Shown: positions 3,001 to 4,776 of the stretch, in pieces
Layout of the letters: each line of letters begins with the position of its first letter
How positions within the stretch are numbered: position 1 is the first letter of the stretch
Virus record (IMG/VR): IMGVR_UViG_2778261504_000020
Source of the DNA: a virus
Taxonomy: Duplodnaviria > Heunggongvirae > Uroviricota > Caudoviricetes
Direction: 5' to 3' (one strand)
Length of the DNA: 4,776 nt
Made by a program: the position numbers

Positions 3001-4776
3001 TTAATGTAACGGTGTTTTTATTAAGTGTGTTTGCGTGGTGTTTTATGTTTTTTATAATTTTTTATTTTATTAAATTTAAAAGCATTAGTAATGGCTATTC
3101 TATATAGCAATATAAGAACTGTTACAAAAAAAGGGGGGCAATTACAGGTAGTTATGGATGATGAGTGAAACAGATATTGGAGAACCGGGGAATGAATGAT
3201 GTCTGAGTCTTATATATCAGAACTCCTTCGCTGTCGCTGGGGGCTCCTGTGCTTATGTCGTTTCCCCGATTCGGTTTTGAACGATTACCGAATGTTGAAG
3301 AATTATGCCAAAATATAGAAAGGATTTACTGCATGAATACCCAATATTTACAGTATGTTCGTGAGCAACTTATGGCAGCTACTGCTGACTTGAACGGAGC
3401 AACGAAAGGCCAGCTCGAAGCCTGGCAGGAGCATGCACAATTTGATACTGGTACATACAAACGAAAGAAGCCGCGCATTCTGGATGTGGTAACTGGCAAG
3501 ATGATTACGCTGGATAATACGCCGACTTCCGGTAAGCAGTCGTACGCAAAAGGTTCATCCATTGCTTTGGTCAGCCCGGTTGAATTCTCAACCTCTTCAT
3601 GGCGCCGCGCGGTTTTGTCTCTCGATGAACATCAGAAAGCATGGTTGCTTTGGTGTTACAGCGAAAGCGTTCGATGGGGGCATCAGGTCACCATAACGCA
3701 ATGGGCATGGAGCGAGTTTAAAGATTTGTTAAGTAACAGAAAAATTGCAGGTAAGACACTGGATCGCCTGAAGACGTTAATCTGGCTGGCTGCACAGGAT
3801 GTGAAGAGCGAACTTGCAGGGCGTGAGGCCTATGAATACCAGACACTGGCATCATTGGTGGGAGTGACAACAAAAAACTGGTCCGAGACATTTACTGAAC
3901 GCTGGGTTGCAATGAAGCACATTTTTCTACAGCTTGATAGTGATGCTTTATTGCTTGTGACGAGAACACGTTCAAAACAAAAGGCAGCATTTTTACAGCA
4001 AAATATTGCAAAACTGGATTAAAAGCCATATACTTCATGCAAATTTGGTATGTTGTAAAAAATGTATAAACCCGCTGCCGAGTGGGTTTTTTTTATGCCC
4101 TGAGTTGTACTTGTACGGTAAACATGCTGGCTGCTATGTAATAGAGTTTTTTTAGCCTGTAACCTCTTGACGGCATTGAATTGCTTTTGTTATGAGTTGT
4201 AAGCCAATGTTATCATCTTGTATTGGGGTGGTTATGAAGGATGGTGCGCTGCTCAGGAGTTCTTCACTTTTTATTGCCTACATGGGATGCCTTGGATGGG
4301 GGAGTGCTTATTTCTATGGATGGGGTACTTCTTTTTACTACGGCTTCCCATGGTGGATTGTAGGTGCAGGTGTTGATGATGTTGCCAGAAGTTTATTTTT
4401 TGCAGTTATCGTCATTGCTATATTTCTTATCGGTTGGGGTATTGGTGTTGTATTCTTTTTCGCAGTGAAAAGAAAACATTCTATGCAAGAGCTAAATGTA
4501 TTTCGCCTTTATTTTGCTGTGGAATTATTGTTTGTGCCGGCAATTATTGAGTTTTCTATATTGAGACAGAAGATTCAGGTACCTCTTTTGCTACTGTCAG
4601 CAGCGATTGCGCTGGCGGTTACAATTTCGATAAGATCTTATGGGCGATTTTTATCGGTATCATGCTTCTATGATAAGCCATTTATAAAAAAACATTTTTT
4701 TGAGATTGTGATGATTGCTTTTGTGGCATATTTTTGGCTTTTTTCATTTCTGACAGGATATTACAAACCACAGTTT

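Follow-up and report, generated by a model that had tools for sequence, protein, structure and literature searches.

A membrane-protein gene of the STM1630/TfpB family in the first late-gene slot of a lambdoid prophage: a possible envelope-acting moron

The prophage sequence analysed here (the window, 4,776 nucleotides of a Caudoviricetes virus, IMG/VR record IMGVR_UViG_2778261504_000020) carries at the head of its late operon the gene for a membrane protein of the STM1630/TfpB family. We suggest, with a probability of roughly 0.4, that the gene is a self-promoted moron which aids the envelope of the lysogen and is boosted by Q at induction, its product attaching to a component of the envelope where the inner membrane faces the periplasm. 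The sequence, the family and its status as a family with no function assigned are already in public databases and are not a new discovery.

Results

The frame that starts from the ATG at 4234 is open for 181 codons in the window and extends past the window end (Table 1). In E. coli prophage DNA that is 100% identical across window positions 3200-4776, from which the full-length gene was read, the frame continues for 57 further codons to its stop with no disruption, giving a protein of 238 aa. The first-pass annotation had described an AT-rich frame of more than 181 aa and had proposed extending it; the description holds for the complete gene, and the frame is intact. An in-frame ATG at 4207 would add nine residues (247 aa), and this is the start chosen by RefSeq and GenBank. 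From the sequence comparison we favour ATG 4234, which has GGGGTGG immediately 5' of it: nearly all of the full-length homologues are 236-238 aa long with a first Met equivalent to 4234, and a predicted -10 at 4211-4216 would place the transcription start downstream of 4207, so that positions 4207-4233 are probably leader.

Table 1. Features of the window around the membrane-protein gene
Feature	Position	Strand	Evidence or remark
LpxR-family lipid A deacylase moron	1898..2857	-	PF09982, E 6.8e-40
Q82-like antiterminator Q	3333..4022	+	PF06323, E 1.7e-91; 229 aa from the RefSeq/434 ATG
Predicted late promoter pR'	4006..4056	+	TTGCAA-17-TATACT hexamers at 4006-4034; candidate pause element TATGTT
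Late terminator tR'	4068..4098	+	9-bp stem, 4-nt loop, T-run; annotated terminator in phage 434 record
Promoter-like leader of the gene	4167..4216	+	CTTGACG at 4167-4173, then TGtTATGAG (extended -10-like)
Alternative upstream in-frame start (ATG 4207)	4207..4233	+	RefSeq/GenBank call; probably leader, not coding
STM1630/TfpB-family inner-membrane protein, codons 1-181 of 238	4234..4776	+	last 57 codons beyond the window

The gene stands in the first late-gene slot after the late terminator, as had been read from the sequence at the outset: Q, pR'-like hexamers and tR' are directly upstream, and no ORF was found between the terminator and the membrane-protein gene. The putative pR' was assigned by analogy with lambdoid late-promoter architecture, and sigma-dependent pausing may occur at a -10-like TATGTT that was read directly in the initial transcribed region. 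The T-run of tR' marks the joint between two different Q modules, and three or four different Q modules have been seen upstream of the membrane-protein gene, which follows each of them as first late gene. Downstream, the order is a DUF3927/TciB-like gene, a 62-aa membrane ORF, a SASA/NanS-p-type esterase, a class II holin, a lysozyme and a lysis protein, with a strong terminator after the first two of these small genes. The original judgement that the protein is far too large for a holin agrees with this arrangement, in which the true holin has 68 aa, lies about 2.9 kb downstream of the membrane-protein gene and abuts the lysozyme gene; the lysis cassette that was to be looked for behind the gene is thus present but not immediately adjacent.

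The companions of the gene differ among its contexts. The 434 type is the only one in which the DUF3927/TciB-like gene and the 62-aa ORF are found with it, and LpxR goes with it in two different phage arrangements only, where LpxR and the membrane protein have diverged to a similar degree (70% and 68% identity, respectively) and where, in one of the two, PmrD is also a neighbour of the gene. Phage 2B8, Salmonella and all of the non-enteric members are without linked LpxR. A constant partner gene was rejected on the grounds of these restricted associations.

The frame in the window is 100% identical to CPT_434_68 of phage 434, a 'putative membrane protein' (UMO75332.1; RefSeq WP_001302581.1), and it matches PHROG 1521 at E 1.7e-154 over the entire profile. 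The Pfam family PF27470 'TfpB' is a precomputed annotation on every homologue found, including a 247-aa representative (P0001) that is one substitution from the protein of the window, and the RefSeq name is 'STM1630 family protein'. The initial statement that no family could be assigned was therefore not borne out, while PHROG 1521, PF27470 and the STM1630 family are all catalogued without function. More than 100 homologues were found. Enteric sequences dominated a profile search of a word-indexed protein database, and a scan of viral contigs yielded 80 near-identical copies from E. coli prophages that added little. In alignments the homologues (about 236-250 aa) share an AY.YGWG..YYG.PWW helix, a helical bundle, a YKPQ linker and a C-terminal beta domain with WYYVL. 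The Salmonella copy adjoining sseJ is 238 aa long and 46% identical, with the N-terminal motif and the C-terminal domain kept; we take sseJ to be STM1631 and hence its neighbour to be STM1630, which is also consistent with the RefSeq family name. The namesake of the Pfam family is presumably the tfpB ORF in the pilin inversion region of Moraxella bovis, and one E. coli fragment was named 'protein tfpB' by its depositor.

Pfam and NCBIfam scans at E values up to 1 returned chance-level matches only (DUF4501, CrgA), none of the defence families of PADLOC matched, and the PHROG matches were solely to families of unknown function, none of them annotated as exclusion. A profile search of PDB sequences gave a single chance match, to the membrane part of MCR-1 (E 0.62). 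Comparison with solved folds gave no match, and echoes of an SH3-like barrel and of an MscS-like layout were not significant. No characterised family, defence model or solved fold was thus matched, and of the two findings that had been named as fatal to the proposal, a match to a known characterised family and a frame disruption, neither was encountered.

The family is present in 22% of complete E. coli genomes, often in two copies per genome. Values of dN/dS between 0.14 and 0.18, from pairs with unsaturated dS, indicate purifying selection, which is seen also in phage-free contexts, that is, on plasmids, in islands and on chromosomes where lysis genes are absent. Such contexts include a position beside eltAB on ETEC plasmids, a decayed late region between iroBC and bor/iss, a position directly after papX, the regulator of the pap operon, in E. 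coli, and the site beside sseJ on the Salmonella chromosome. The members in Pasteurellaceae and Neisseriaceae are orphan genes that occupy fixed positions with housekeeping genes on both sides. A common descent from decayed late regions of phages may be all that lies behind the adjacency to virulence genes.

The GC content is 38% in the part within the window and 36% in the whole gene (GC3 30%), whereas among the neighbours Q has 46%, most nin genes have 50-54% and the esterase has 56%. The protein had been called rich in Trp, Gly and aromatic residues, which is right for W (2.9%), F (10.9%) and Y (7.1%), at about two to three times typical E. coli values, and not for Gly, which is 6.7% overall with no enrichment and is concentrated in the N-terminal motif. 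An AlphaFold model from 22 enteric sequences was poor (pLDDT 63), and an alignment of 60 sequences was used instead, which gave a model with pLDDT 86.8 in which five long helices precede a small C-terminal beta domain of five strands and about 55 residues. Five transmembrane segments are probable but not certain: the count of at least five that had been made at first sight agrees with the five predicted helices, but by Kyte-Doolittle only four are strongly hydrophobic and the aromatic- and Gly-rich helix 1 is not. The positive-inside count (10 K/R on the proposed cytoplasmic side and 6 on the opposite side) points to a cytoplasmic N-terminus and an outside C-terminus as the most likely topology, with the beta domain probably periplasmic, and the topology could differ because helix 1 is not clearly hydrophobic. 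The most conserved parts are helix 1 (GWGSAYFYGWG..YYGFPWW), the loop behind it (DD/DN.ARS), the final part of helix 5 (YKPQFKKEY) and the beta domain, and in the model these would lie on the periplasmic side. Y35 and G184 are the sole positions without variation in the alignment of 60 sequences; elsewhere, high conservation is confined to A, G, P, Y and L, and no polar or charged residue is conserved family-wide.

In the promoter-like leader, CTTGAC and the TG do not vary among four contexts, although the proteins encoded there are just 57-68% identical to the copy of the window, and in the ETEC plasmid copy the homology begins exactly at the CTTGAC/TGn element and continues to the gene end. 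From this pattern we infer that the element may act as a promoter. A second, overlapping candidate is TTGTTA-18-TATCAT at 4187-4216; a promoter scan found sites in the region to be no more numerous than in shuffled sequence, and the -10 hexamers are poor. The gene had been described as Q-dependent and coupled to induction; a purely Q-dependent picture is probably incomplete because the conserved promoter-like element accompanies the gene into contexts where Q is absent. For the Salmonella gene STM1630, a -10 box and a promoter of its own have been mapped (PMC6785131).

A CII-binding-like repeat (TTGT-N6-TTGT at 4187-4200) is annotated in the 434 record and could mark a CII-activated promoter. 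The same record carries many CII consensus matches, and the second half-site of this repeat is not conserved.

Published data on relatives concern phage 434 and Salmonella. The variant 434B, in which the region from Q to lysis has been swapped for DLP12 sequence, is viable and plaque-forming (PMC9119081), and judged from this phage, which is without the whole segment, the membrane-protein gene is dispensable for lytic growth. The annotators of phage 434, with HHpred among their tools, reached only 'putative membrane protein' (PMC9119081), and no function for gene 68 was given in the literature that we found. STM1630 has been listed alongside SPI-2 and pag genes (PMC2639726) and was chosen for follow-up from intra-macrophage expression data, with no intramacrophage replication defect reported for the deletion (PMC6785131). 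Hypermotility was described for an STM1630 mutant (PMC4219756), but the effect did not recur in a clean deletion (PMC4534456). The literature found on STM1630 thus consists of a non-reproduced motility phenotype and expression data, and it ties no phenotype to any family member.

Discussion

The gene would, in our reading, be an accessory moron that heads the late operon of lambdoid prophages of the 434 type and the Shiga-toxin-phage type and that stands outside the lysis machinery. A weak sigma-70 promoter of its own, downstream of tR' and upstream of the start codon, would keep it expressed at a low level in the lysogen, and at induction the Q-modified polymerase would pass tR' and transcribe it strongly as the first late gene. 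The protein is suggested to bind rather than to catalyse, because none of its polar or charged residues is conserved across the family. With low confidence, we propose that its partner is a component of the envelope, bound at the inner membrane's periplasmic face to the benefit of the lysogen, and that this is a function in lysogenic conversion or in envelope protection, the benefit of which may explain why hosts retain the gene after the prophage has decayed. Two properties of morons were found here: the base composition deviates (GC 36% against 46-56% in the neighbours), and lytic growth in 434B goes on when the gene is missing. As to transcription signals, the CTTGAC/TGn element upstream, with weak -10s, is a candidate promoter, and the strong terminator comes after the next two small genes. 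In favour of a link to the envelope or to virulence we count the LpxR and PmrD neighbours, the listing of STM1630 with SPI-2 and pag genes and its choice for follow-up from intra-macrophage expression data.

An inner-membrane protein of a prophage could also block the DNA entry of an incoming phage, in the manner of HK97 gp15, P22 SieA or T4 Imm, or kill the infected cell, and an effector of superinfection exclusion or abortive infection was among the first ideas for this gene. Such a role would suit an inner-membrane protein with a conserved surface that probably faces the periplasm, and a gene that stands alone, has a promoter-like element of its own, is not needed for phage growth, is kept in decayed prophages and islands and often occurs twice in a genome. 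However, no PADLOC model matched, all of the PHROG matches are of unknown function with none in exclusion, and the copies in Pasteurellaceae and Neisseriaceae are at fixed housekeeping sites, not in defence islands. The Salmonella gene, moreover, is listed among virulence regulon genes, and the slot between Q and lysis usually holds toxin or host-interaction cargo, as in Stx and LT-II phages, which counts against exclusion. We regard this explanation as somewhat unlikely. Far less credence is given to an accessory protein of pili or fimbriae, similar to TfpY/FimB or to Moraxella tfpB, that would aid or modulate the assembly of surface filaments. The Pfam name TfpB, the E. coli fragment deposited under that name, the E. 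coli copy directly after papX and the occurrence in Neisseriaceae and Pasteurellaceae, which are groups with type IV pili, all point in this direction, as does a predicted outline shared with TfpY-like proteins, with membrane helices bundled at the N-terminus and a beta-rich C-terminal domain in the periplasm (PMC11841053). The TfpY-like proteins, however, have three helices and a larger two-sheet domain (PMC11841053) instead of five helices and one small beta domain, most contexts of the gene are without pilus genes, and in six-frame translations of 5-6 kb on each side no type IV pilin signal (class III signal-peptide) motif was present at any of 54 loci.

The position as first late gene, upstream of a class II (pinholin-type) holin and a lysozyme in all of the phage contexts with readable downstream genes, could suggest a late membrane protein that modulates the timing of lysis through the pinholin/SAR-endolysin cassette, and in principle a membrane-tethered endolysin could be the binding partner of a periplasmic domain. 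A novel lysis regulator had been proposed earlier and is now disfavoured as very improbable, since purifying selection persists in plasmids, islands and chromosomes where lysis genes are absent; the distance to the holin with several terminators in between and the gene's own promoter-like element also argue against it. Equally improbable is the other early idea that has lost favour, an enzyme that modifies the envelope, for instance lipid A or LPS, in concert with the linked LpxR. The linkage to LpxR in two different arrangements with similar divergence, the PmrD neighbour in one of these and an aromatic-rich surface, predicted to be periplasmic, that could bind sugars or lipid are consistent with it. 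Against it stand the lack of a family-wide conserved polar or charged residue, the Pfam and NCBIfam scans, in which no enzyme family matched, the chance-level score of MCR-1, and the members in phage 2B8, Salmonella and non-enteric bacteria that are without linked LpxR.

A broader proposal, which we consider rather doubtful, is that the STM1630/TfpB proteins are a new class of non-enzymatic inner-membrane gatekeeper, delivered by lambdoid phages into the slot used for stx and LT-II and repeatedly domesticated by hosts beside eltAB, sseJ, pap and iro/iss, which would exclude phage DNA or colicins or act on the envelope with a fold that has no solved relative. If true, it would mean a new mode of phage-DNA or colicin exclusion, or a new envelope-acting factor of host adaptation. 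The slot is the most consequential cargo position of lambdoid prophages, holding stx in Shiga-toxin phages, and about one in five complete E. coli genomes carry the family, with copies beside LT genes, a SPI-2 effector gene, P fimbriae and the salmochelin/iss island. A conserved, selected and widespread family to which no function has been assigned is a real gap in the biology of both phages and pathogens, and testing would be easy since phage 434 and its natural deletion variant 434B both exist.

Compared with known systems, the protein resembles holins (class I, class II and pinholins) in being a membrane protein of the late operon. Holins differ by their small size (below about 150 aa, with one to four membrane segments) and by their adjacency to the endolysin, whereas this protein has 238 aa, five helices and a beta domain and occurs also where lysis genes are absent; with the true class II holin elsewhere and no holin Pfam match, the identity as a holin was rejected. 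A GtrA-type flippase was rejected as well, as no GtrA profile matched in Pfam or NCBIfam at E values up to 1 and the phage contexts hold no glycosyltransferase neighbours. HK97 gp15, P22 SieA and T4 Imm are, like this protein, stand-alone inner-membrane proteins that are dispensable and encoded by phages or prophages, and they may serve as a model of how it works, but no sequence relationship to them was detectable, the PHROG matches being all to families of unknown function. All three are smaller than it, and none is known to be encoded at the start of a late operon. The likeness to TfpY/TfpX/TfpZ/FimB-like proteins lies in the inner-membrane location, the N-terminal helical bundle and the periplasmic beta-rich C-terminal domain, and those proteins are non-enzymatic and proposed to act through binding (PMC11841053). 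The comparison is by outline, not by sequence, and TfpY-like genes always adjoin the major pilin gene, whereas the present family had no pilin gene nearby at the 54 loci. STM1630 of Salmonella is a full-length member of the same family that, unlike the copy in the window, is chromosomal and outside any phage. The closest system is phage 434, which has the same gene order of LpxR on the minus strand, YlcG, a Q82-like Q, the terminator, the membrane-protein gene, the TciB-like gene, the small membrane ORF, the SASA esterase, pinholin, endolysin and spanins, the sole difference being that the window ends inside the gene.

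Results

The reading frame from position 4234 is open up to the end of the window (181 codons). At least 15 E. coli chromosomes carry window 3200-4776 with 100% identity, and in 616 genomes a match covers 80% or more of this region. Read to its stop in one identical chromosome, the full ORF encodes 238 aa, and the frame is not disrupted beyond the window. Databases use an upstream in-frame ATG at 4207, which gives 247 aa; we favour 4234, because nearly all full-length homologues are 236-238 aa long and begin at the equivalent Met. The sequence GGGGTGG lies immediately 5' of this ATG. 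The GC content of the gene is 36% (30% at third positions), compared with 46% in Q, mostly 50-54% in the nin genes and 56% in the downstream esterase. The dN/dS ratio of 0.14-0.18, obtained only from pairs with unsaturated synonymous divergence, indicates a real gene under selection. The AT-rich coding sequence reported by the first-pass annotation was therefore real and correctly placed. Its description of the protein as unusually rich in aromatic residues and Gly was borne out for Phe, Tyr and Trp, whereas Gly is clustered but not enriched.

Phage 434 (OL657226) encodes the same protein (100% identity) as CPT_434_68, annotated 'putative membrane protein', and a phage 2B8 gene product is 98% identical. 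It matches PHROG 1521 (E 1.7e-154), a family annotated as function unknown, and every homologue in a large protein collection carries the precomputed assignment PF27470, named TfpB; our own Pfam scan gave no PF27470 match because this family is newer than the Pfam copy scanned. One E. coli fragment of the family is named 'STM1630 family protein' in RefSeq, and the depositor of another called it 'protein tfpB'. The namesake is presumably the tfpB ORF of the Moraxella bovis pilin inversion region. The ORF is not new as an object: GenBank, RefSeq, PHROGs and Pfam between them already list the identical gene and its family. The first-pass annotation, made without tools, for that reason failed to place the protein in any family; it was right on the functional gap, since the family is catalogued and its function is without explanation. 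Pfam and NCBIfam profile scans with E up to 1 gave no holin, GtrA or other characterised family, and neither the PADLOC defence models nor the annotated PHROGs matched the protein. In agreement with the earlier judgement that it is not a holin, a lysis cassette with class II holin, lysozyme and lysis protein lies about 2.9 kb downstream, after a DUF3927/TciB-like gene, a 62-aa membrane ORF and a SASA/NanS-p-type esterase.

An AlphaFold model built on a 60-sequence alignment from three bacterial families was confident (pLDDT 86.8, pTM 0.81). Four of its helices are strongly hydrophobic, helix 1 (the conserved aromatic/glycine-rich segment) less so. The side that carries the N-terminus, loop 2 and loop 4 has ten Lys and Arg residues and the opposite side six, which favours a topology with the N-terminus in and the C-terminus out and would make the beta domain periplasmic. 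Resemblances of this domain to SH3-like barrels and of the whole layout to MscS are weak (E-values near 1).

The window holds the nin-Q-late boundary of a lambdoid prophage (see table). The lambda-type Q remnant, labelled 'antitermination protein, incomplete' in RefSeq, ends where the AT-rich LpxR/YlcG/Q82-like module starts (about 1755), indicating that one Q module was swapped for another. The GC content is 39% in the LpxR gene and 29% in the spacer upstream of it (2858-3195). No other ORF lies between the hairpin with its T-run and the family gene. The DUF3927 gene and the 62-aa ORF accompany the family gene only in the phage 434-like arrangement. Phage 434 has an intact esterase gene; in E. 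coli E2865 it carries a frameshift, and in phage 2B8 IS elements take its place.

Features of the window, of the predicted protein (247-aa numbering) and of loci carrying family members (L numbers)
Feature	Location	Coordinates	Strand	Remarks
NinX, NinF, 70-aa ORF, YbcO/DUF1364, RusA, NinH	window			rightward order
Lambda-type Q gene, first 24 codons (MRLESVAKFHSPKSPMMSDS...)	window	1684-1755		cut off at about 1755
LpxR-family lipid A deacylase	window	1898-2857	-	PF09982; AT-rich moron
YlcG, then Q82-like antiterminator Q	window	Q end 4022		PF06323, E 1.7e-91
Promoter-like TTGCAA-17-TATACT	window	4006-4034		directly after Q
Hairpin and T-run	window	4068-4098		terminator as annotated in phage 434 GenBank record
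TTGT-N6-TTGT	window	4187-4200		
Five long helices	protein	9-45, 56-88, 93-120, 125-146, 158-190		AlphaFold
Five-stranded beta domain	protein	193-244		AlphaFold
DUF3927 protein, TciB-like	L001	10837-10995		PHROG 1470; annotated as colicin resistance or cell-division inhibition; directly downstream of family gene
62-aa membrane ORF	L001	11052-11240		then strong terminator, 11181-11207
SASA/DUF1737/DUF6645 esterase	L001	11294-13158		NanS-p type
Family gene, ETEC plasmids	L036-L039	5001-5714		59% identical
eltAB	L036-L039	2987-4134	-	
Family gene, ExPEC island	L043-L046	5001-5714		E. coli chromosome
Toxin-adjacent region, Glaesserella parasuis	L022	6982-9044	-	family member directly beside gene for a protein with cytolethal distending toxin A/C domain

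Between the terminator and the start codon stands CTTGACG, followed about 18 nt on by TGtTATGAG. CTTGAC and TG are invariant in four contexts in which the proteins are 57-68% identical to the window copy and the other upstream bases have diverged, and between the ETEC plasmid and 434 copies homology spans exactly from the CTTGAC element through the gene end. A second candidate promoter, TTGTTA-18-TATCAT with an upstream TG, overlaps the CTTGACG element. Its -35 region is in turn overlapped by TTGT-N6-TTGT, the CII-binding consensus in the phage 434 record, probably a chance match because other copies do not preserve the second half-site. Downstream, the following two small genes are closed by a strong terminator. 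In Salmonella a -10 box has been mapped for the homologue itself, and in ST313 strains two SNPs within it silence the gene (PMC6785131). These elements and the deviant base composition fit the moron pattern, in which a gene with a putative promoter and terminator of its own has been inserted into the late operon. A unit of this kind could be expressed from the repressed prophage, and after induction Q-modified polymerase would sweep it up.

An exhaustive profile search found only 73 relatives among 1.8 billion cluster representatives, so the family is small; it ranges over Enterobacteriaceae, Pasteurellaceae and Neisseriaceae. In E. coli the gene is widespread: 1197 of 5426 complete genomes have it or a diverged copy, at a median of two places each. 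The gene is the first one past the late terminator in the window and phage 434, whose Q is Q82-like, as well as in phage 2B8, which carries a different Q. Phage 2B8 also differs in late promoter and terminator stem and is nearly identical to the window from the T-run onward; the joint of the two Q modules falls exactly on the T-run (window about 4090; locus L003 about 4860), which places a recombination joint between Q module and late cargo at the terminator. In Yersinia the gene directly follows a PF06530-type Q. The Shiga-toxin-phage-type order is Q, methylase, two tRNAs, about 1.1 kb of non-coding DNA, the family gene, LpxR and PmrD on the opposite strand, NanS-p and holin. LpxR and the family gene occur together in two different arrangements with equal divergence (70% and 68% identity), and in the second PmrD adjoins LpxR (L041).

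On ETEC plasmids the gene is divergent from the heat-labile enterotoxin genes eltAB, with STb about 3 kb away. Its homology with the phage copy sets in at the conserved CTTGAC, 71 nt 5' of the start codon, as would fit an origin of the DNA around eltAB in a phage late region. The ExPEC copy beside iroBC still has the terminator and leader upstream and, about 2 kb after it, Rz/bor-like sequence 90% identical to phage 434; it lies in a decayed lambdoid late region. This arrangement fits the known phage origin of iss/bor. In UPEC islands a copy directly follows papX, and the Salmonella copy adjoins sseJ outside any phage. The Pasteurellaceae and Neisseriaceae genes are lone orphans amid unrelated housekeeping genes such as dnaK, glnB, rpoH, mqo, tsaB, hscB, ftsH, metE and mdh. 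The toxin-adjacent G. parasuis locus has two more ORFs whose sizes are those usual in a cdt operon. Of the E. coli copies, the most diverged (39% identical; L005-L007) has IS elements, a Rep3 replication gene and an integrase upstream and an IS110-family (DEDD) transposase gene close by, a plasmid-like context. No conserved partner gene was found across the contexts compared.

Discussion

The ORF is intact, under selection and dispensable; it is a stand-alone gene for an inner-membrane protein and belongs to a small catalogued family. The unit of gene and putative promoter is mobile, enters genomes via the lambdoid late-operon cargo slot and is retained by hosts after the phage decays. We rank first, tentatively, a non-catalytic envelope function benefiting the host, because the gene is retained without phage, is under purifying selection, has LpxR, PmrD, bor and iss as neighbours, and is listed in a Salmonella virulence regulon: STM1630 is among the genes co-regulated with SPI-2 and pag genes (PMC2639726). 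STM1630 was also picked from intra-macrophage expression data, with no replication defect reported (PMC6785131; bioRxiv 10.1101/450098). A deletion mutant was hypermotile in a screen (PMC4219756), but this was not reproduced with a clean deletion (PMC4534456).

Superinfection exclusion, one of the functions proposed in the first-pass annotation, follows the same logic and comes second; however, no similarity supports it and orphan copies sit at fixed housekeeping sites. The other candidates are well behind. As for an envelope-modifying enzyme, the only family-wide invariant positions are one Tyr and one Gly, and the other highly conserved ones are Ala, Gly, Pro, Tyr and Leu, which argues for binding or scaffolding instead. 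As for a pilus accessory role, 54 loci were inspected and none had a type IV pilin gene within 5-6 kb. As for a lysis regulator, purifying selection also preserves the family on plasmids, in islands and on chromosomes that lack lysis genes. In the plaque-forming laboratory variant 434B DLP12 sequence replaces the whole Q-to-lysis region (PMC9119081), so the gene is dispensable for lytic growth. The phage 434 authors, using HHpred, called its product only a putative membrane protein (PMC9119081).

A host-benefiting envelope function remains our tentatively preferred reading, and the comparison of 434 with 434B offers ready-made genetic tools. In the Shiga-toxin-phage-type late region the family gene holds the slot that stx occupies in toxin phages, and the interest of the system is that a widespread gene of unexplained function sits in this toxin slot.
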